Below, one piece after another: positions 2,425 to 52,690 of a stretch of DNA of 52,885 nt. Position numbers and translations under genes: made by a program. Every line of letters starts with the position of its first letter. The first letter of the stretch is position 1. The notes under the pieces are model-generated. The model was not told the DNA's origin. It searched no databases and was given only the letters and a program-made list of their open reading frames with translations. Source of the DNA: a virus (Duplodnaviria > Caudoviricetes); the IMG/VR virus record IMGVR_UViG_3300011114_000575, positions 1 through 52,885 of that record, one strand, 5' to 3'.

Positions 2425-2817
2425 TCACCAAACTTGGTCGGGCTGATCGACGCGCCCGCGAATAGCATGATCGTCAATGATGCGGCAAAGAACGCCGTTG
2501 ACAGTTACGCTCCAGCCATCAGAAGGGCGGAACAGAACCCAATCGTCTTCATTAATTTGAACGTCTGAAAACCACTGATTTTCTGGGTCAACAAAAGCAG
2601 TCGCACCCTTTTTAAGAACAAGACCAATCTTGCCCTGATACTTATCCTCATTTGTGGTTTGATCGGTAAGATAGATACCGCTTTTTGTCTTAGAGGGGCG
2701 GATATAAACCCCAACAAGAACCTGATTGTTGAAAATTTCAACCTTACTTAAATCGCCAACGTCACCCTTTAGCTTCTTCTTCGGGTCAACGTCGTGTTGC
2801 ATTAGCATAAGCGTCAC
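2425..2817 (-). CDS. groES: Co-chaperonin GroES (Cpn10)
   Basis: NQVLV...SKTKSGIYL mobile loop, G-x-VL-x-x-G, DWVLF and CRIIDD motifs. Confidence 0.85.
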   Translation of the reverse strand: MTLMLMQHDVDPKKKLKGDVGDLSKVEIFNNQVLVGVYIRPSKTKSGIYLTDQTTNEDKYQGKIGLVLKKGATAFVDPENQWFSDVQINEDDWVLFRPSDGWSVTVNGVLCRIIDDHAIRGRVDQPDQVW

Positions 2818-4666: not shown

Positions 4667-6484
4667 TTACGGGCGTCCCCGTGTGTGCTGACGACCGGGC
4701 AGCGCGGCGTGGCGAGTGAGGGATAAGGCGTGGTCGACAACGGAACCGCCACCCATTGGCAGACCAATTTCTGCCATGGCCTGGGCGAGAGGATGGTTGT
4801 GGGCAGGGTCTTCAATGGCACCGCCGGTAGCAGCATGGCGCATGGCGTTGATAACGTCTTGGTGCGTCGTCTGTTCGTCGCCGACCTTGTCCCAAACAGC
4901 ATGGTGGGTAAGGTGCTGGTAGTATGGCTCCATGCCCTCAGGCGTTTTCAAGCCCATAGCCTCCTGCCGGGCAGCAAGGCGGTCGACAGCTTCACTGCCG
5001 GCGCGTGCGAGGGGTTTCTTGGCCTCTGAGGTAGGATTGCCGGTGTGCAGGACAATCTGACGCGCATCGAGCGTAGGCTGGTCTCCACGTCCAAGTAGAG
5101 ACCCCATAAACCCAGCCTTTGCGCTGCCGATGCCATGAACGCCACCAATAAAATTGCGCCACTCTTCGGGACTGCTTTTGCTCTGCATCGCACGAGCAAC
5201 CATATCAGACACAGCTTTCGCATGCTGAGGAAGGTTTTGGGCTGCCCACGGAAGTGCCTTTGCTTCAGTAGACAGACCAAATACCTTCATGACATTGGCA
5301 GCGTCTGCAATGGATTCGTGGTCGACAATACCCTGCTCGGCGGCGTCAAGATAACGGCGCCCCATAGGAGAATGCAGCCACTCACCAAAAGCCCCTTCAG
5401 GACGAACGCTGCCATTAAAATCATGAGGAATTGGCACGCCCGACGCGCGAGCCTTATCAGCAGACCTAGATTCGCGCTGAATGCTGGATCGAGTGATTGT
5501 ATATGCCTTAATGAGGTCGCGAGGGGTTAAGCCATGCGTTGCGGCCCGACGCGCTGTCTCATCCATGAACTGGCCAAAGTTGACAACATGCGACGGGATT
5601 TCGCGTAAATCCCCAAGCTGTTCCTGCACTTCGCCAAGGGGTCGCCAATCCCATCCAGCCATCTTGCGGCTTTCAGGGTCTTTGTAGGCCTCGCCTCCAT
5701 CCGCACGATGAATGCGACCACCACGGGCGGCAGCATCACTATCACCATAACCACCGCCAAGGGGGCCGGCAGCGGCAGCGGCAGCGGCTGCCATCTCGGC
5801 GGTGCCGCCGGTCGGAGCCCCACCGCCATTAGGGTGCCAACGGTCCCCACTGCCACCCTGGCCTTCCTCAAGAGGATTGTCTGGGAGATTGTAGGAGGAC
5901 GCATTGAACGTCGGCGCGGGGATGGACGGGCCGATGTATTTCGATTCCAGAGGCTTACTTGACCCCGTGTAGGTGGTGGGGCGCGACGCCAGTATAGCCG
6001 CCATAGTGGCCTTGGACGGGGCGAGGTTCAGCGTTTCAGGCGACGGCAGGCCGGTGAAGGCGCCAGCAGCCGGGGCGAAGTTGATGGGGGCGCCAGTGGC
6101 CGAAGCAAAGCCAGCAGGACTGCCACCAAACGCATAGCCGCCACGGTTCATCATCTTGAGGGCGCGGTCGACAACGTTGCCGTGATCCCCCGCCACCCAC
6201 GCATCAGGCGTCTGGTGATAGACGGACATCCAATCATCATGCAGCTTGCTCGGCGCGATGCCATGCTCATGGCTAATGCGCTTCATGATGCCATCAATAG
6301 CCGCATACTGCGTGCGCCCCTTCATGCTTCGCAGTTCATCGCGATGCATCTTCAGGAGGTGTTTTAGTTCTGCAACGGCAGGATTGTGCGGCGTGTGCTT
6401 TGTAATGTTACCACGATTAGGTAAATTCTTGTGGCGAGCAACATGAAGCGCCGCACGGGCGGCTTTCTTGGGATCAGCGGTCAC
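4667..6484 (-). CDS. Multidomain virion-associated protein with an HhH-GPD DNA-glycosylase-like domain
   Basis: 605 aa, stop/start overlap with portal; VHGIGSAKAGFMGSLLGRGDQPTLDAR resembles the HhH plus catalytic Asp region, and HHAVWD is C-terminal; xAxGG motifs flank the domain. Confidence 0.6.
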   Translation of the reverse strand: MTADPKKAARAALHVARHKNLPNRGNITKHTPHNPAVAELKHLLKMHRDELRSMKGRTQYAAIDGIMKRISHEHGIAPSKLHDDWMSVYHQTPDAWVAGDHGNVVDRALKMMNRGGYAFGGSPAGFASATGAPINFAPAAGAFTGLPSPETLNLAPSKATMAAILASRPTTYTGSSKPLESKYIGPSIPAPTFNASSYNLPDNPLEEGQGGSGDRWHPNGGGAPTGGTAEMAAAAAAAAGPLGGGYGDSDAAARGGRIHRADGGEAYKDPESRKMAGWDWRPLGEVQEQLGDLREIPSHVVNFGQFMDETARRAATHGLTPRDLIKAYTITRSSIQRESRSADKARASGVPIPHDFNGSVRPEGAFGEWLHSPMGRRYLDAAEQGIVDHESIADAANVMKVFGLSTEAKALPWAAQNLPQHAKAVSDMVARAMQSKSSPEEWRNFIGGVHGIGSAKAGFMGSLLGRGDQPTLDARQIVLHTGNPTSEAKKPLARAGSEAVDRLAARQEAMGLKTPEGMEPYYQHLTHHAVWDKVGDEQTTHQDVINAMRHAATGGAIEDPAHNHPLAQAMAEIGLPMGGGSVVDHALSLTRHAALPGRQHTRGRP

Positions 6485-9048: not shown

Positions 9049-10737
9049 CTAGACCTCATAAATTGACGATGCGACCGGCGACTGGTGGCGCATGGATTCT
9101 TGCATCTCGGCTTGCCACTCAGGCTCACGGACAAGCAGGCCACGGTCGCGGAAGTGCTTTACAGCCATAGAGACTGTATCCACAATATCGTCATTTTTGC
9201 CCTTGGGGAACACAGATACTTGCTGGATCACCATGTCGGCAAATGCGCGGTCAGGTGCGTAGATAATACCCTCTGCGAAGAGATGCTGTATGCTGTATAG
9301 GCGAGCGAGCTTGTCTAGTGTTTTGGGGTCATACATTTGCACACCCCAATCTTCGTGACTGTATAGGCGGCGAATCTCTTGCGCGACGCTATGGCCGGCG
9401 GCCTTGTTCTCGATCAGGAGCAGATCGACTTTAAGGCGGCGGCAGGTTTTGGCCACCTTTTCGACGAGGTCGTGTAGCTCCAGACGCTCCTGCCAGCCGT
9501 CCATAAGCATGAGCCTGGGCTGGTCGCCACGCGGCCCCTGAGGGCCTTTGTGCAGCACCTGGGCGGCTTGATCAAACATATTCATGGCGTCCTGCGTGTC
9601 GCGCCTCTGGCCGCCTCGTGTGGCGTAGGCGTCGATGCGCTGCGCCTGGGCGCCGCTGAACAGCCCCCAGACGGTCAGGGCGCTGAAGTCGTTCTCGGCC
9701 TTGATCGTGTAGGCGGTATCGAGCGAGGCGACGACATACTCCATAGGCGGGAACACGTTGGCCTCGTAGAGGCGCCACCACTCCCGTTTGATAACGCCAC
9801 CGCCACGCGGCGTAGGCTCCTGCTGGAACTGGCCGGCTGTCGCGTATGGCCCCATGACGCGCTTGTCGCGGGCGACCACCTCAGCCGGGAAACGCTCAGG
9901 GAACAGCAACTCGCCGGCTTCCGTGCGAGGGTCTATGAACCCCAGCTTGGTCGGGAACGAACGCGCCGGGTCGAATTCCATCGGCAGCATGAGGTGATCG
10001 TATCCAAGCTGCTTATCCAGGATGATGCCGCTCACGTCCTCCTCATGGAGGCGCTGCATGATGATGACAATTGAAGATCGAATGGGATCATTCAAACGTG
10101 TTGGAATAGCTTCAAGAAATGTAGTGACTTCCGTCTGTCGCTGCGTTTCGGAAGCTGCTGAATCCACAGAATGTGGATCATCAATGATAACCCTGTCGCC
10201 CCTGATACCTGTCAAGCTAGTGATCGCAGTGGCAATACGAAAGCCACCAACGCTATTGACAAAATTCAGCTTCTCATTCTGATCCTTGGCCAGCTTGACG
10301 TTGTCGCCCCATCGGGCCTGATACCATTCAGACGTGATCAACTGCCGCATACGCCTGCTATCGCGAGCCGACAGATTCTCGACCTTGTGCGCCGCACAAA
10401 CATATCGCAAGTGCGGCAGGTTGCACGGCCCCCACTCCCACGCGGGCCAAAACACATTGGTAATAAGAGACTTCATTGTCCCTGGCGGAACATTTACAAG
10501 AAGACGATTGTATGGCGTTCCGTCGTCTAACTCGTGGCCATCAGTAATCGCCTCAAGATGCTCGCAAATGGCGTCAATATGCCAACCATGCGTATATGGC
10601 TGCCCTGGCTCAACTATCGCCCACGCCATACGAATAAAAGCAACAAGGCTTTCTGCGGCCTCCGCCTTATCTAAGTCGATTAGAACCTTGTCAGCGTCAA
10701 GAACAAGATTGCCAACACGAACAAGCGTATTGCTCAC
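9049..10737 (-). CDS. terL: Terminase large subunit
   Basis: Walker A variant VPPGTMKS, Walker B RVIIDDPH, IMQRLH coupling motif, RNase H-like nuclease (SLDTA, IENKAAG, NDDIVD). Confidence 0.95.
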   Translation of the reverse strand: MSNTLVRVGNLVLDADKVLIDLDKAEAAESLVAFIRMAWAIVEPGQPYTHGWHIDAICEHLEAITDGHELDDGTPYNRLLVNVPPGTMKSLITNVFWPAWEWGPCNLPHLRYVCAAHKVENLSARDSRRMRQLITSEWYQARWGDNVKLAKDQNEKLNFVNSVGGFRIATAITSLTGIRGDRVIIDDPHSVDSAASETQRQTEVTTFLEAIPTRLNDPIRSSIVIIMQRLHEEDVSGIILDKQLGYDHLMLPMEFDPARSFPTKLGFIDPRTEAGELLFPERFPAEVVARDKRVMGPYATAGQFQQEPTPRGGGVIKREWWRLYEANVFPPMEYVVASLDTAYTIKAENDFSALTVWGLFSGAQAQRIDAYATRGGQRRDTQDAMNMFDQAAQVLHKGPQGPRGDQPRLMLMDGWQERLELHDLVEKVAKTCRRLKVDLLLIENKAAGHSVAQEIRRLYSHEDWGVQMYDPKTLDKLARLYSIQHLFAEGIIYAPDRAFADMVIQQVSVFPKGKNDDIVDTVSMAVKHFRDRGLLVREPEWQAEMQESMRHQSPVASSIYEV

Positions 10738-11201
10738 TTCTTGGCCTTAGCCGCTACCATCACAGCACGCAATGCGTCGCGCTGCTCAGGCGAAAGGTCG
10801 CCAACATCAATCGTCGTCGCTTCCACCCTAATAGGCCCACCATCAGGACCAGACAGTTCCTGCTTTTGAGAATCAATCCAACCAGATGCAGAGCGACTAC
10901 GATTACGCAAACCCAAACTAATAATCTGAGAGTTTCCAGGTGAACCATTAGCAGTGTTCATTGCCCTTTCTTCCCACCACGCAAGAGCCTTGATGCGCCC
11001 TTCGTGAATAGCTTGCGAAAACTCAAGGTGCTTTGCCTGCCAATCGTAGATACACCTATGTGGGATATCTAATTTAGCAGACGCAGCTTCAAGAGAATAA
11101 CCTTGAGCCATAATCTCGATGATCTTATCGCAATACTCTGGCTTGTAATTAGTGGGGCGACCCATCTTGCGCTTAACTTCGCCTTCCTTATCTACTGCCA
11201 T
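10734..11201 (-). CDS. terS: Terminase small subunit
   Basis: GRPTNYKPEYCDKII N-terminus with HTH, ELSGPDGGPI motif; overlaps terL start. Confidence 0.88.
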   Translation of the reverse strand: MAVDKEGEVKRKMGRPTNYKPEYCDKIIEIMAQGYSLEAASAKLDIPHRCIYDWQAKHLEFSQAIHEGRIKALAWWEERAMNTANGSPGNSQIISLGLRNRSRSASGWIDSQKQELSGPDGGPIRVEATTIDVGDLSPEQRDALRAVMVAAKAKK

Positions 11202-11250: not shown

Positions 11251-12027
11251 TCAATATGCCCACGGATTCAAATCAAATCAACAGATTTGTGTTTTTTTCA
11301 AAGCTTTCTTCAACCGCTTTCTCGATTCGCTCTTGGGCGATGGCAAAATACTTTTCGTCGCGCTCAATACCGATGAACTTACGGCCAAGGTTTACGGCGG
11401 CGACGCCGGTTGTGCCGCTGCCCACAAAGCAATCAAGGATCACCCCGTTAGAACCATCGTCTACTGCGTTGATAAGAGACTCCATCAGCCCTGTGGGTTT
11501 GCATGTGGGGTGGCCGTGGTCTTCCGAAGGGCTTGGGCGCCGCGTTTCATAAACGCTCTTGGGGCGTCCATTCTTGAAGATACGCCTGCCTTTTGCGGCA
11601 TACCAGATAACGTCGTGCATTGGCGCAAACGCCCCGCGAAGATCGCCCATGCCGTGATGGAGTCGGTTCCAGATCACTTGCGACTTCATATCAAACCCGC
11701 AGTCCTCGATATGCTTGCGCCAATCACAACTTGTTTTCCAGTCGCAAAACGAGAGAAGCGCCCCCCCCGTCTTTAGAACACGGAACGCCTCCACCAACCA
11801 CCGTGCGTCTATGGTGTCGTCTCCGTGGATTTTTTCGTGTCTCGGTCCCTTCTTGGACCAATTTGACTGAAAGCCCATTCCGTAGGGAGGGTCTGTGATG
11901 ACTGCATCCACCGACCCATCCGCAATCTCCTTCATCCGCTCAAGGCAATCGCCCTGCATCAGATAAAAGCAATCACTTTTTACATCGTTCATCTTAAACC
12001 ATTTTAATTGTCGGGCGCCCTCAATAT
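11240..12027. repeat. 18-bp direct repeats GTCGGGCGCCCTCAATAT flanking the MTase gene
   Basis: Identical copies at 11240-11257 and 12010-12027. Confidence 0.85.
11273..11992 (-). CDS. Beta-class N6-adenine/N4-cytosine DNA methyltransferase
   Basis: Motif IV TDPPY precedes HPTCKP and motif I LDCFVGSGTT; start at ATG 11992 chosen (the ORF extends to 12046). Confidence 0.92.
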   Translation of the reverse strand: MNDVKSDCFYLMQGDCLERMKEIADGSVDAVITDPPYGMGFQSNWSKKGPRHEKIHGDDTIDARWLVEAFRVLKTGGALLSFCDWKTSCDWRKHIEDCGFDMKSQVIWNRLHHGMGDLRGAFAPMHDVIWYAAKGRRIFKNGRPKSVYETRRPSPSEDHGHPTCKPTGLMESLINAVDDGSNGVILDCFVGSGTTGVAAVNLGRKFIGIERDEKYFAIAQERIEKAVEESFEKNTNLLI

Positions 12028-12046
12028 AGACACGAAAAGCGATCAA

Positions 12047-17828: not shown

Positions 17829-18638
17829 TCATAGCGCCCGCAACAATCTTGGGTCCACATAAATGTCATTTAGGCGCTTACTCTCAACATCTGAAAACTC
17901 AATCTCACAGAAATTGCCACAATCTGGCAAAATGTGACCTTCTTTTCGGCCTGAGTTGGGGTTGAGTTGGTCAAGAAAAACACGTCCGTTTTTGTCCTTT
18001 AAACATGAATTGCCGATCTCTCTCTCTATGCGCGCCATTTTGGTGAAAGTATCAGGGAAATCCTGTCTGATCTTGTTCCAGTAGCCCGCGCCCCCTTTTA
18101 GGCACCCCACACAGTTGTTGTTCGAGTATCCGAGTTTATACATCATAGGTCTTTCAATACCCATGATGTTCTCAAGGTAGTAGAGCGTATGCTCTTTAGT
18201 CATTTTCTGTTCGATAAGCGGGAAAATTGCTTTTGCCTTTGGATACTGCTCAATAAATCGAATAGCGCGATTGATTTCCTTATTTTTGTATTCAAAGCCA
18301 AAGACTTGGTGGAGGAAGTCTGTTTCTTCTTCAATCCGGTAGCGGACGTTTTTCTTTAGTTCGAGCGTGCAGCGTGCGCCGTTGGGGCCGTTGATATACC
18401 GAGTTTTCTGCGCCACATCGAATTGGTCAAGATACTTTACGGACCTGTGGATTTCAATTTCTTTGCCGTAAACCGCCTCACACTCCTTAATGAACCGCTC
18501 GTTGTCTGGATGCGCCGAATCAATCTTAAAATATATCAAGCGCACTTTGTCTGCGCCGAACTCATCGACGGCCATTTTGCACGCGACTGCTGACGTGACG
18601 CCAGCAGACCACCATGCGATGATGGGTAAGTTGTCCAT
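17829..18638 (-). CDS. PAPS-reductase-like (PP-loop) protein with Cys clusters
   Basis: WWSAGVTSA degenerate PP-loop, CTLELK, NNNCVGC and CGNFC; start MDNLP at 18638 with AAGGA RBS. Confidence 0.75.
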   Translation of the reverse strand: MDNLPIIAWWSAGVTSAVACKMAVDEFGADKVRLIYFKIDSAHPDNERFIKECEAVYGKEIEIHRSVKYLDQFDVAQKTRYINGPNGARCTLELKKNVRYRIEEETDFLHQVFGFEYKNKEINRAIRFIEQYPKAKAIFPLIEQKMTKEHTLYYLENIMGIERPMMYKLGYSNNNCVGCLKGGAGYWNKIRQDFPDTFTKMARIEREIGNSCLKDKNGRVFLDQLNPNSGRKEGHILPDCGNFCEIEFSDVESKRLNDIYVDPRLLRAL

Positions 18639-18752
18639 TTTTTGTCCTTTCTTGGATTTGGATATGAAGTGTGTCACAGTATGACGCCGGACCCCGGCGC
18701 TGTCGAGATGTTGGTGTTGTTTTTTGTGGGTTGTCAATCACATTTATCATGT

Positions 18753-29408: not shown

Positions 29409-29650
29409 GCAACAGGAACCGGAGGGGAGTTGGGCGCGGCGTTACCTTCAGTCTGCATAGGCTGCGGCGGCGCAGGTGGAACGGGATCAGTGCCATTCCA
29501 CGGGAAGCCTGGAGAAGCCTGCACGGAGCCGGTGTAATGCACCAGCGTGATGCCTTCAGGAGGCGTGTATTCCGCCACGCCATCATACTCTATGACGTTG
29601 TCGATGATGCTGTTCGCGTCAATCAAAAGCCAGGGCATGATGCTCACCAT
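29405..29650 (-). CDS. Small tail-fibre-associated protein (putative chaperone)
   Basis: Follows the tail fibre; NVIEYDGVAEYTPPEG is paralogous to 44699..44929. Confidence 0.6.
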   Translation of the reverse strand: MVSIMPWLLIDANSIIDNVIEYDGVAEYTPPEGITLVHYTGSVQASPGFPWNGTDPVPPAPPQPMQTEGNAAPNSPPVPVA

Positions 29651-31146
29651 TCAAAGAAAACAACGCCAGCCCTGCCGGCTGTGGGGGAGCCAGAATCACC
29701 AGTTCCCCCCGCGCCATATCCTCCACCACCAAAGATGGATGCAGCGCCAATATTTCTACCATAATTTGCGCCATAAACGCCAGCGCCGCCAGCAATAGAA
29801 AGAGTAGGAGAACCAGCAGTTACGCTTCCGCCACTGCCGCCAGTCGTAGAACCTGTTCCGCCAGTCGTAGTTACAGTAGTAATGGCCTGAGTGCCAGATG
29901 AAATGCTGCTACTGCCACCACTACTTCCGGCGCCAGATGTTCCAGCAGCGCCGCCAGTGCCAACTGTCACTGAAATTGTATTGCCAGGAGTAAGGGAGGA
30001 TAGGTAAGTAATTGCGGCAGCACCAGACCCACCGCCACCAGCAATAGAACTTGGTAAACCACATCCGTTAAAAACGGTTCCAAGTGACCCGCCACCACCG
30101 CCACCAACAATAGTCACCTTCACAACAGTTACGCCAGTAGGGATGGTAAATGTTCCCGATGACGTAAAAGCCTGACTAGACTTGATGGTTGCAACCGACA
30201 CAGACCCGGCGCCATTGGTGATGGTGATGCCATTCCCGGCCGTCAGGGTAGCCCGAGTGAACCCGGTCCCGTTGCCGATATCAATCTGCCCGTTGGACGG
30301 GGTCGTGGTGAGGCCAGTTCCGCCGTTCGCGATAGGCAGGGTGCCGGTGACGCCCGTTGTCAGGGGCAGGCCGGTGGCATTGCCCAAGGTGATCGTGGGG
30401 CCGCTGCTGAGGACCACGTTGCCGGTGCCGGTGCTGGTGGTGACGCCAGTGCCGCCAGACGCCACAGGCAGCGTCCCAGAGGTCAGGGTGGTGGTGCCAG
30501 TGGCATAGATGGCGCCGCCAGACGTGAAGCTCACAAGGCCCGTGCCACCGCTGGCCACAGGCAGGGTGCCAGAGGTCAGGGTGGTCGTGCCGCTGGCGTA
30601 GATGGCGCCGCCAGACGTGAAGCTGGTGAGGCCTGTGCCGCCGCTGGTGGTGCCGAGGATGCCGCTGAGGGCGATGGTGCCGCTGGAGGTGATAGGGCTA
30701 CCGCTGACCGTCAGACCGGACAGGCTGGTGGAGAAGGCGACGCTGGAGACCGATTGCGTCGTCCGCATGCCGGAGGCAGTGCCGTCGCAGGAGACGTTGA
30801 TGAGCGCCCCAGGCGGAACCGTGACAGCCGATCCGCCGGCAGCCGAGGAGATGCTGAGGACAAAGGCGCCCGAGGTGCCGTTGTAGATCATCCACTGGCC
30901 GCCAACCCCCGAGGGGACGACGTAGTTGACGTTGGCTGTCAGAACGCCGCTGATAGTGAGCGTCAGGGGAGCATACTGCGCCGACGACAAGGTCTGATTG
31001 CCAGACAGGGCGGTGACATTCAAAGATGTCGAGCCACCAAAGGCAGTATCAATCTGACTGAGCGAGGTATTGACCGTCGTGCCCCACCCCGTATCACTGA
31101 GAGCAGGTTCGCCAATAGCTTTGTTCGGTGTGTATGACGTAGCCAT
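29644..31146 (-). CDS. Tail fibre / receptor-binding protein with C-terminal glycine-rich domain
   Basis: GTLPVASGGTG repeats; FTSSGTFTIP..VKVTIVGGGGGG...GVVFFEW. Confidence 0.8.
   Translation of the reverse strand: MATSYTPNKAIGEPALSDTGWGTTVNTSLSQIDTAFGGSTSLNVTALSGNQTLSSAQYAPLTLTISGVLTANVNYVVPSGVGGQWMIYNGTSGAFVLSISSAAGGSAVTVPPGALINVSCDGTASGMRTTQSVSSVAFSTSLSGLTVSGSPITSSGTIALSGILGTTSGGTGLTSFTSGGAIYASGTTTLTSGTLPVASGGTGLVSFTSGGAIYATGTTTLTSGTLPVASGGTGVTTSTGTGNVVLSSGPTITLGNATGLPLTTGVTGTLPIANGGTGLTTTPSNGQIDIGNGTGFTRATLTAGNGITITNGAGSVSVATIKSSQAFTSSGTFTIPTGVTVVKVTIVGGGGGGSLGTVFNGCGLPSSIAGGGGSGAAAITYLSSLTPGNTISVTVGTGGAAGTSGAGSSGGSSSISSGTQAITTVTTTGGTGSTTGGSGGSVTAGSPTLSIAGGAGVYGANYGRNIGAASIFGGGGYGAGGTGDSGSPTAGRAGVVFFEW
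30446..30646. repeat. 93-bp (31-aa) tandem coding repeat
   Basis: SGGTGL(T/V)SFTSGGAIYA(S/T)GTTTLTSGTLPVA occurs about twice. Confidence 0.8.
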
Positions 31147-51775: not shown

Positions 51776-52690
51776 TTACGAAGTGGGGAACGACCCGAAG
51801 ATCGAACGCCAATTGTAGTAACCGAACGAGTAACGCTCGTAACCCTTCACAAGCAGATTGTCAGTGACAAAATCCACCTGCATGTCGGTCTCAAACTTGA
51901 CTCGCTCCATATACGACAAACCATCAATGTTCGTCAGGAGGAACCAAGCAAAAGCCGACGTGAGGAAGTCGTTGGTCATGTAGCCTTCGGGAAGGCCACC
52001 GGCCGTCGACACAATCGCGTTGACGTCGTTGTCAGCCGTGCCGGGGCGCAGTTCCGTCTTCGTCAGACGAATAGCAACCGGCTCAAGCTGCGGCGGGACA
52101 ATGAGCTTGCGAGCGCGCGCAAACACCTTCAGGCCAGCCTGATCGCGGAAGTTGGTTCGCACCGAGATCATGCCGTTCAGCAGGGTGGCCTCGTTGAGGT
52201 CAACCTGGATGGTCGGGGTGTTGGCAACGGTGCCACCGTCAATCGGGTGCGCAGTGGAGCACAGGGCCACGCCGTCACCGCCAACCGACGCATTGTAGGT
52301 CGTCGCGGTATTCAGCAGGTTGGCGCCGTAGATTTCCTTAGTCTGCTGGAAGGACTCGATCAGACCAAGGTTCGACGGGTGAAACTGCGTCTTGTAGAGG
52401 TTGTCATCAATCGCCTTGCGAGTGATGGCATACCCAAGAGCAATTTCAGTGTGTTCCTGGTTGTAGACAAAACGCTCACCAGCATTATTGTCAAACGCAG
52501 TCTGACCACCTTCGGTCTTAAGCTGCGCCAGACCCAGGTAGCGCATCTCAGCGGTGCGCTCCAGAGCCATCTTCGACTCGTGCTTGGTGAAAATCTTATC
52601 ATACTGAGACGGGATCATCTCATACTTGCCCTCGACGCCACGAAGGCCGGGGAGCAAGAGGTCCTTGATAGCCGAAAGATTAACAGCCAT
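51776..52690 (-). CDS. Major capsid protein (HK97 fold)
   Basis: 304 aa; LLLPGL, HTEIALGYAIT..AIDDNLY, GDGVALCSTAHP, LIVPPQL, AWFLLT, ERYSFGYYNWRSIFGS. Confidence 0.92.
   Translation of the reverse strand: MAVNLSAIKDLLLPGLRGVEGKYEMIPSQYDKIFTKHESKMALERTAEMRYLGLAQLKTEGGQTAFDNNAGERFVYNQEHTEIALGYAITRKAIDDNLYKTQFHPSNLGLIESFQQTKEIYGANLLNTATTYNASVGGDGVALCSTAHPIDGGTVANTPTIQVDLNEATLLNGMISVRTNFRDQAGLKVFARARKLIVPPQLEPVAIRLTKTELRPGTADNDVNAIVSTAGGLPEGYMTNDFLTSAFAWFLLTNIDGLSYMERVKFETDMQVDFVTDNLLVKGYERYSFGYYNWRSIFGSFPTS

Follow-up and report, generated by a model that had tools for sequence, protein, structure and literature searches.

The window analysed here is a whole viral record, the 52,885-base IMG/VR record IMGVR_UViG_3300011114_000575 (completeness estimate 91%), and it encodes, directly downstream of the portal gene, a 605-residue protein, P0001, part of which is predicted to form a two-lobed, all-helical domain of the HhH-GPD superfamily of DNA glycosylases, structurally nearest to OGG2. 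The domain recurs among the head genes of related viral loci as an accessory cassette bracketed by short glycine-glycine (GG) tags, and it carries a helix-hairpin-helix (HhH), a Gly-rich loop and an aspartate in the register of these enzymes, together with a set of invariant residues. We regard it as about an even call that the domain represents a new, phage-restricted HhH-GPD family, which serves as an exchangeable module of a polyvalent head protein and acts as a capsid-delivered cutter of DNA bases.

Predicted fold of the P0001 domain

An AlphaFold2 model of residues 262-560, built from a 35-sequence alignment, has a mean predicted local distance difference test score (pLDDT) of 93.5 and a predicted template modelling score (pTM) of 0.91; 265 of its 299 residues reach a pLDDT >=90. 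The model comprises 16 helices, is all-alpha, and is disordered only past residue ~554, where a GG tag falls, in agreement with the globular region that a sequence-only reading of this DNA had placed at 4835-5692 (residues 265-550 of P0001). Judged by its structural matches, the model has the two-lobed fold of the HhH-GPD superfamily, which consists of a four-helix lobe and a six-helix lobe containing the HhH.

In a wide structural search with VIA-align, 25 PDB representatives reached Z>=5, all of them members of the HhH-GPD superfamily (DUF2419 included), and the first unrelated row had a Z of 4.2. Tm1821 OGG2 (3n0u) ranked first (Z 15.4, root mean square deviation (rmsd) 3.2, 204 of 209 residues aligned); further ranks were taken by EndoIII-3 (Z 10.0), DUF2419 (Z 9.5), MagIII (Z 9.4) and OGG1 (Z 8.9), and the lower rows at Z>=5 by Mag1, NTHL1, AGOG, MutY, MUTYH, ROS1, AlkA, MBD4 and TAG. 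A second structural look, which returned 110 chains at Z>=8, placed four OGG2 structures at the top (3n0u, 15.4; 3fhg, 15.2; 3knt, 15.1; 3fhf, 14.7), with the next family at 10.0. Because the top Z lies above the level of ~13 up to which the tool advises caution for helical proteins, and because the list of matches is of a single kind, we consider an OGG2-like HhH-GPD fold established at the level of prediction; it is the fold that the sequence-only reading had named from the letters alone.

Signature residues and what they imply

All motifs quoted in that reading lie at their positions in the translation of the open reading frame (ORF) 4667-6484: WRNFIGGVHGIGSAKAGFMGSLLGRGDQPTLDARQI (the WRNF...GIGSAK...TLDARQI stretch) corresponds to residues 442-477 of P0001, and HHAVWD to residues 527-532. 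In the model, a helix (439-446) leads into the hairpin G451-I-G453, followed by a second helix (454-463), a Gly-rich loop (G465, G467, P470) and Asp473, which opens the next helix, giving the signature V-H-G451-I-G453 ... G465-R-G467-D-Q-P470-T-L-D473. Asp473 lies 20 residues past the last hairpin Gly, the same distance as in E. coli Nth (G118 to D138), whose annotated gene provides G116-V-G118, K120 and D138. The register of the hairpin was fixed by a short hhalign alignment with Nth, which served this end only, together with the structural match.

Across 256 domain sequences, 42-98% identical to that of the window (median 59%), D473, E363, K326, S334, R337, R361, R475, R506, H527, H541 and W531 are conserved in every one, as are G465 and G467, and K456 is kept in 254. 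This pattern fits an enzyme without proving one. The domain contains no cysteine, and hence no Fe-S cluster.

In HhH-GPD enzymes the hairpin binds the DNA backbone, the target base flips into a pocket between the lobes, and an Asp drives cleavage of the glycosidic bond. By analogy, the HhH of the P0001 domain would bind duplex DNA, and a base would be flipped into the inter-lobe pocket, where its N-glycosidic bond would be cleaved using Asp473; Lys456 could serve either as a backbone contact or as the nucleophile of an apurinic/apyrimidinic (AP) lyase, and Glu363 with the cluster of His and Arg residues probably lines the pocket.

Several results weigh against this reading. Searches of Pfam (E<=1), PHROGs and the PDB (phmmer and hmmsearch) gave nothing usable for the domain. 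Run over all six frames of the window, the HhH-GPD profile PF00730 had no match at E<=10, whereas it matched in 14 of 14 control genomes, and it recognised 0 of 35 family members at the same threshold; Ogg-HhH (PF22175) reached one of the 35, at E 0.11, and left the window's own domain unmatched. Foldseek, a check that had been proposed with the original reading, did place OGG1 and OGG2 in its top rows against the PDB, though with weak E-values (best 0.12). The hhalign alignment of the family profile with E. coli Nth, which sets GIG on GVG 116-118, spans 20 columns at a probability of 0.2% and is non-significant. Lys456 lies at hairpin position +3, whereas the Lys of Nth lies at +2, a position occupied here by Ala (191/256) or Ser (62/256); the catalytic Lys of OGG2 we take to be at +2, as in Nth. 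The domain is also ~80 residues larger than OGG2, and two proteins of HhH-GPD fold that are not cutters of DNA bases, DUF2419 (which acts on queuosine-5'-monophosphate) and Mag2 (which binds abasic sites), score Z ~9. As for delivery in the head, the MuF (Phage_Mu_F) domain is absent from P0001 and from 32 long family members.

With the Lys at +3 rather than +2, a bifunctional OGG2-like glycosylase/lyase mechanism is not established. Of the glycosylase signature claimed from sequence, hairpin, Gly-rich loop and Asp are in register with Nth, but the Lys comes one residue late and no HhH-GPD or Ogg profile recognises the domain, which weakens the analogy with OGG2. As every test by sequence profile failed and the Lys is shifted, we file the domain, on the evidence of its model, as a new phage family of the HhH-GPD superfamily, structurally nearest OGG2, and not as OGG2.

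A large, apparently phage-restricted family

The family was collected with residues 262-560 of P0001 as the query, and the matched stretch nearly always covers query positions ~5-297. Relatives of the domain make up 401 protein clusters at 90% identity (E<=0.001) and 439 representatives at 50% identity, 236 of the latter at E<=1e-30. The proteins are 251 to 2296 residues long, and of 259 examined, 128 carry the domain at the N-terminus, 77 internally and 44 at the C-terminus, while 10 consist of little else. At least 279 stretches of public viral contigs encode a relative, whereas among 185,579 bacterial and archaeal species genomes only 12 do. All 12 lie on contigs from metagenome-assembled genomes and offer no cellular context, and the family thus seems confined to phages. 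Among 50,697 phage records the domain occurs only in one uncultured genome, MW202675, and in no cultured phage. Large, unnamed in Pfam and absent from cultured phages, the family would be an unexplored enzyme resource, and any new specificity within it, for modified bases for instance, would make a useful tool.

A portal-coupled, exchangeable cassette

The GTG start of P0001 shares the tetranucleotide GTGA with the TGA stop of the portal gene, which is recognised as such by SU10_portal and phrog_1216; the description of the gene as portal-coupled thus holds. Among 80 domain-bearing viral loci, a portal homologue precedes the domain gene on the same strand in 66, and 12 more, truncated on the upstream side, have the downstream genes in common as far as the capsid gene, so that the domain gene lies among head genes in 78 of the 80. 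The remaining two, L081 and L082, have none of the head genes typical of this phage group, portal and capsid included; the L081 copy of the domain forms part of a 398-aa ORF (L081:9707-10903 (+)) amid virion-structural genes of a different phage type. Its presence in another phage type indicates that the cassette has crossed between phage lineages.

This position bears on the possibility that the protein is an unpackaged, late cytoplasmic enzyme of repair or DNA maturation, cleaning, for example, damaged or misincorporated bases before packaging. The nearest structural relatives are indeed repair enzymes, and parts of one source describe HhH-GPD repair proteins encoded by phages in their DNA-metabolism modules (PMC5336643). 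We nevertheless consider such a role very improbable, given the translational coupling to the portal gene, the location among head genes in 78 of 80 loci, the fusions to hallmark domains of polyvalent proteins and the accessory nature of the domain described below, and the tags that P0001 has in common with the basic, GG-rich P0003.

Loci were also compared with the capsid gene as the anchor, using the best 80 of at least 595 related contigs, which are the closest capsid matches and not a random sample. Seventeen of these loci span the interval from portal to capsid; three contain the domain and 14 do not. An eighteenth, L143, is also free of the domain but does not reach the portal. In the 14 domain-free loci one to four ORFs, 193-1643 residues in length, occupy this slot, carrying GP88, ART-PolyVal, DUF7178, an L5 gp82-like domain or nothing recognisable, and downstream of the slot the P0003-like protein, GroES and the rest are conserved. 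This comparison of orthologous loci, suggested by the sequence-only reading, bears out its proposal of a swapped cassette: the domain is accessory and exchangeable. A role as a universal, MuF-like anchor of the phage group was rejected, given its absence from 14 of the 17 portal-to-capsid loci.

The partners of the domain vary. InPase is fused to it in 60 of 120 homologues among the matches listed, and the 32 long family members include 11 with ART-PolyVal, three with PBECR5, one with ParB_N and one with PcfJ; SLT and Hydrolase_2 are also found on some long members, and fusions to GP88 and GNAT occur. The window's own P0001 carries none of the hallmark domains of polyvalent proteins. In P0052, the protein from MW202675 (L001:7959-10655), the InPase module (residues 745-873) finds its counterpart in residues 635-762 of 9b41_L, a phage portal chain of solved structure (E 1.3e-23), and the InPase partner domain can therefore be part of a virion; this portal chain is consistent with the domain protein travelling in the capsid. 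The GenBank label of P0052, 'type I restriction enzyme', found no support in a PDB sequence search, and a protein-atlas search gave no usable hit for its unknown middle part.

Two further explanations turn on these partners. A domain that is often the recognisable constant part of proteins whose other parts vary, in a family without a MuF anchor, could be a non-catalytic DNA-binding module that tethers cargo to the packaged genome or to a DNA end, such that the fused effector domains exit together with the DNA or the end is protected. Mag2 (Z 9.0) provides a precedent for a non-catalytic HhH-GPD homologue, and Lys456 is off the canonical position of the nucleophile. We think this unlikely, since a pure backbone binder would have no need of the would-be catalytic Asp, present in 256 of 256 sequences, or of the invariant Glu, His, Ser and Thr residues; moreover, the domain is dispensable for this phage group, and that 14 of 17 loci do without it speaks against a core role, whether structural or as a tether.

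The second explanation sees the domain as an N-glycosidase of HhH-GPD fold whose substrate is a small molecule instead of DNA, such as a nucleotide, a modified nucleotide or a nucleotide-derived immune signal that the host makes once infected, much like DUF2419/Qng1. Structures of DUF2419 rank among the better matches, at Z 9.0-9.7 over 221-237 aligned residues, and InPase, the commonest fusion partner, has been suggested to act on nucleotide-like substrates or pyrophosphate (sections of PMC5512222), while the ART-PolyVal and GNAT partners use nucleotide cofactors. OGG2 DNA glycosylases match far better, however (Z ~15 against ~9.5), the HhH is preserved and its distance to the Asp is that in Nth, which acts on DNA, the Lys and Asp are separated by 17 residues instead of the 32 in DUF2419 (K199 and D231, the mutants named in PDB titles), and the many invariant Arg and Lys residues fit binding to a backbone. 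A small-molecule substrate is accordingly quite improbable in our estimation.

Short repeated tags at the module borders

The domain had been described as bracketed by GG motifs and as swapped between them. A GG lies at the C-terminal end of the domain in 243 of 258 family proteins, with the consensus A-M-R-[HNG]-[AY]-[AK]-x-G-G-[RA]-[IV]. Of the 109 proteins in which >=60 residues precede the domain, 93 have one <=25 residues upstream of it; in random 30-residue windows from other parts of these proteins a GG is present in 24% of cases (699/2856). The bracketing thus exceeds chance. It can be made more precise in the three closest loci (L004-L006), where direct repeats of (G/S)RIHRADG(G/K), 324 residues apart, stand on both sides of the cassette and are alike at the DNA level too. 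Compared with P0005 and P0007, the copy in the window shows a gap of 16 residues, which removes the second RIHRADG tag.

Relatives that are 89% identical to P0001 document the exchange itself, as P0004, P0005 and P0007 differ from it by whole modules at tag sequences. In P0005 an extra module of 171 residues is enclosed by two copies of the junction VVDRALKM-SRGGYAFGG, in P0007 the first ~20 residues are followed by an inserted ART-PolyVal module, and in P0004 a GP88 module is added after a second RIHRADGG. The locus shows unusually clearly how phage cargo proteins are assembled from modules by way of short repeated tags.

In many family proteins a short helix motif, seen as VVDRALKM, VVDHALSL or IVERALAI, recurs at protein N-termini, at C-termini and at module borders beside GG tags. 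It occurs at 6152-6175 and 4718-4741 (-) in the window and at the C-terminus of the protein of L098, and its N-terminal form is M-x-D-x-V-K-R-A-L-D-L-V. This V-x-R-A-L helix could be a docking or capsid-targeting signal.

Some eukaryotic virus polyproteins have GG-X processing sites that resemble the GG tags, which here are situated in disordered linkers. No protease turned up in the head module. A tail-fibre-like protein of 500 aa elsewhere in the window (29644-31146 (-)) consists of 21.6% Gly, with 27 GG dipeptides and almost no charged residues; GG density alone does not, therefore, mark tags of the cargo type.

Under the reading that we favour, of a capsid-delivered base cutter, modules would be joined by short repeated tags (basic-x-x-GG and the V-x-R-A-L-x-h helix) and would be gained, lost and shuffled there. 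Following the model for polyvalent proteins, P0001 would be loaded into the capsid alongside the other portal-proximal cargo proteins and would exit with the DNA, to serve early in infection as a weapon or counter-weapon directed at DNA bases, either those of the host DNA or marks and damage on the incoming genome. A bolder version, which we hold only tentatively and judge somewhat unlikely, is that these abundant uncultured phages inject a capsid-loaded, OGG2-derived glycosylase as a base-excision weapon, with the GG tags and V-x-R-A-L helices as the grammar of a cargo system. Such an enzyme could cripple the host chromosome by cutting out bases, whether normal or with host-specific modifications, or it could clear the entering DNA of marks set by defences. 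The tags and helices would be joints for recombination in the DNA and, in the protein, signals for processing or capsid targeting.

Architecture of P0001 and the surrounding head module

The features of P0001 and of the head genes are listed in Table 1. The start assigned to P0001 is consistent with homologues, which begin with MTADPKKAARAAL. In the N-terminal cassette, residues 58-98 give the weak match to phrog_10346, a family of unknown function (E 0.0049), and residues 29-97 are 35% identical to segments in four Synechococcus phage 'tail fiber' genes. Motifs like those at the C-terminus of P0001 recur in other family proteins.

Table 1 Features of P0001 and of the head module, in window coordinates
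Feature	Position	Strand	Evidence or remark
P0001, 605 aa, modular 'polyvalent'-type head-module protein	4667..6484	-	translation; without Pfam match at E<=1
N-terminal helical cassette of unknown function, residues 1-115	6140..6484	-	phrog_10346 weak match
Junction 1, VVDRALKMMNRGGYAFGG, residues 104-121	6122..6175	-	duplicated around P0005 insert
Gly/Ala/Pro-rich low-complexity linker, residues 122-256	5717..6121	-	poorly conserved, gaps relative to P0004
Upstream tag RIHRADGG, residues 257-264	5693..5716	-	recurs 324 residues downstream in L004-L006
Predicted OGG2-like HhH-GPD-fold domain, residues ~266-558	4811..5689	-	family boundaries, AlphaFold2 model, VIA structural search
HhH hairpin, Gly-rich loop and Asp signature, residues 439-476	5057..5170	-	predicted helices, hhalign, conservation
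Downstream tag HAATGG, residues 550-555	4820..4837	-	disordered stretch right after last helix
C-terminal tail, residues 556-605	4667..4819	-	contains HPLAQAMAEIGLPMG, terminal helix motif VVDHALSL
Small terminase	10734-11201	-	head module
Large terminase	9049-10737	-	head module
Portal, 779 aa, directly upstream of P0001	6481..8820	-	PF23899 SU10_portal E 1.7e-18; phrog_1216 portal E 1.8e-31
P0003, 500 aa, next gene after P0001	3144..4646	-	basic, GG-rich
GroES/Cpn10-like gene	2425-2817	-	Pfam Cpn10 E 9.9e-8
Major capsid gene, reached across the record's ends	51776-52690	-	head module

The head genes run on the minus strand in the order small terminase (TerS), large terminase (TerL), portal, P0001, P0003, the GroES/Cpn10-like gene, three unannotated genes and the major capsid protein (MCP). 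Judged by the capsid protein, the nearest cultured phages are pelagiphages of the HTVC023P type (~42% identity). P0003 starts 20 bases past the stop of P0001, preceded by GGAG. It consists to 21% of K, R and H and contains 20 GG dipeptides and 14 tags of the form [RKHYF]x1-2GG (HKADGGE, NRADGGE, RAEGGK, RATGGR); its residues ~24-117 and 467-500 are kept in all related loci examined, just upstream of GroES. Pfam and PHROG searches with P0003 were without match, and we regard it as a candidate internal head or DNA-associated protein. The GroES/Cpn10-like gene sits between the cargo genes and a putative scaffold; the paper on HTVC023P-type pelagiphages lists GroES as a core gene and does not mention portal-proximal cargo proteins.

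The MCP is 86-94% identical across the window and loci L007-L083, as against ~47-74% for the portal and 41-68% for the large terminase; the capsid is unusually constrained compared with its neighbouring genes, and at least 595 viral contigs carry this MCP. The window also encodes a PAPS-reductase-like protein (17829-18737 (-), phrog_424, E 2.6e-43) and a DNA methyltransferase (11273-12046 (-), phrog_67, E 9.6e-66), a pair that hints that the phage's own DNA may be modified. Such modification would matter for what a glycosylase carried by the phage attacks and what it leaves alone.

DUF7178, a possible cousin cassette

In L098 the portal-proximal slot is occupied by DUF7178 (PF23802; L098:3670-4689 (+), E 1.5e-25), relatives of which are encoded on 224 viral contigs. 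A protein-language-model search gave DUF7178 as the named cluster nearest to the domain (score 0.93), and the two have P-E-G and T-[LI]-D motifs in common (T-I-D-T-H in DUF7178). Its model (pLDDT 84.8) has Tm1821 as its best PDB match, with ~20 HhH-GPD entries in the top 50 (Z 3.3-5.7). An assignment of DUF7178 to HhH-GPD was rejected because the match is too weak (Z 5.7, interleaved with integrase core-binding domains), and the modelled construct may truncate the domain. The DUF7178 profile had no match at E<=10 in the window or in 35 family members, a profile-profile alignment of the two was not significant (probability 1.2%), and hhalign of the domain profile against the DUF7178-bearing protein aligned only the terminal V-x-R-A-L motif. 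No literature was found on 'DUF7178'. From its model, DUF7178 may be a second, more divergent glycosylase-like cassette.

Comparison with known systems

OGG2 (Tm1821, 3n0u; SsOgg, 3fhg; MjOgg, 3fhf and 3knt) is the best structural match by a wide margin, at rmsd 3.1-3.8 and with 196-205 of its 207-214 residues covered by the alignment. Like the domain, OGG2 lacks an Fe-S cluster and has the HhH followed by the Gly-rich loop and the Asp. Identity is, however, only 10-16%, no profile links the two, and, apart from the differences in size and in the position of the Lys noted above, OGG2 stands alone in a cellular repair pathway whereas the domain is embedded in multi-domain phage proteins. Nth and the other HhH-GPD enzymes (MutY, AlkA, MagIII, Mag1, OGG1, AGOG, ROS1 and MBD4) have the same two-lobed all-alpha fold as the domain is predicted to have (Z 5.7-10.0), and in Nth the spacing from hairpin to Asp is identical, but the domain is without an Fe-S cluster loop, its Lys is shifted by one residue, and PF00730 is blind to it. 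DUF2419/Qng1, a nucleotide hydrolase of queuine salvage and a poorer match than OGG2, has an HhH-GPD-type fold as well and shows that this fold can act on free nucleotides.

Polyvalent proteins of phages and conjugative elements are linked to the portal and have been proposed to be packaged and injected (Iyer et al. 2017; main text of PMC5512222). P0001 and its relatives resemble the proteins described there in being multi-domain, in lying beside portal and terminase genes and in being associated with ART-PolyVal, InPase, PBECR, ParB and lysozyme-type effectors: the family has variable domain combinations with hallmark partners, and TerS, TerL and the portal lie directly upstream of P0001. They differ in that the domain is matched by none of the Pfam models of polyvalent-protein domains and in that MuF is lacking. 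The main text of the polyvalent survey does not contain the word 'glycosylase' and names HhH once, in the context of RadC, and its supplementary lists could hold an unnamed equivalent (PMC5512222).

We found no report in the literature of a glycosylase-fold domain in phage head or cargo proteins; in the retrieved parts of the literature on glycosylases in phage conflict, the matches listed concern host defences only. Recent work has identified host DNA glycosylases as weapons that act against phages whose DNA is modified. Those defences, Brig1 and its relatives (as set out in parts of PMC11078745 and of two bioRxiv preprints), are like the system proposed here in using base excision as a weapon in phage-host conflict, and unlike it in that they are host enzymes hitting modified phage DNA, whereas the present domain is phage-encoded and lies in the head module. 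If the proposal is correct, a phage-borne glycosylase in a slot for capsid-delivered effectors would place base excision on both sides of this conflict, and the injected enzyme would mirror the glycosylases with which hosts defend themselves.

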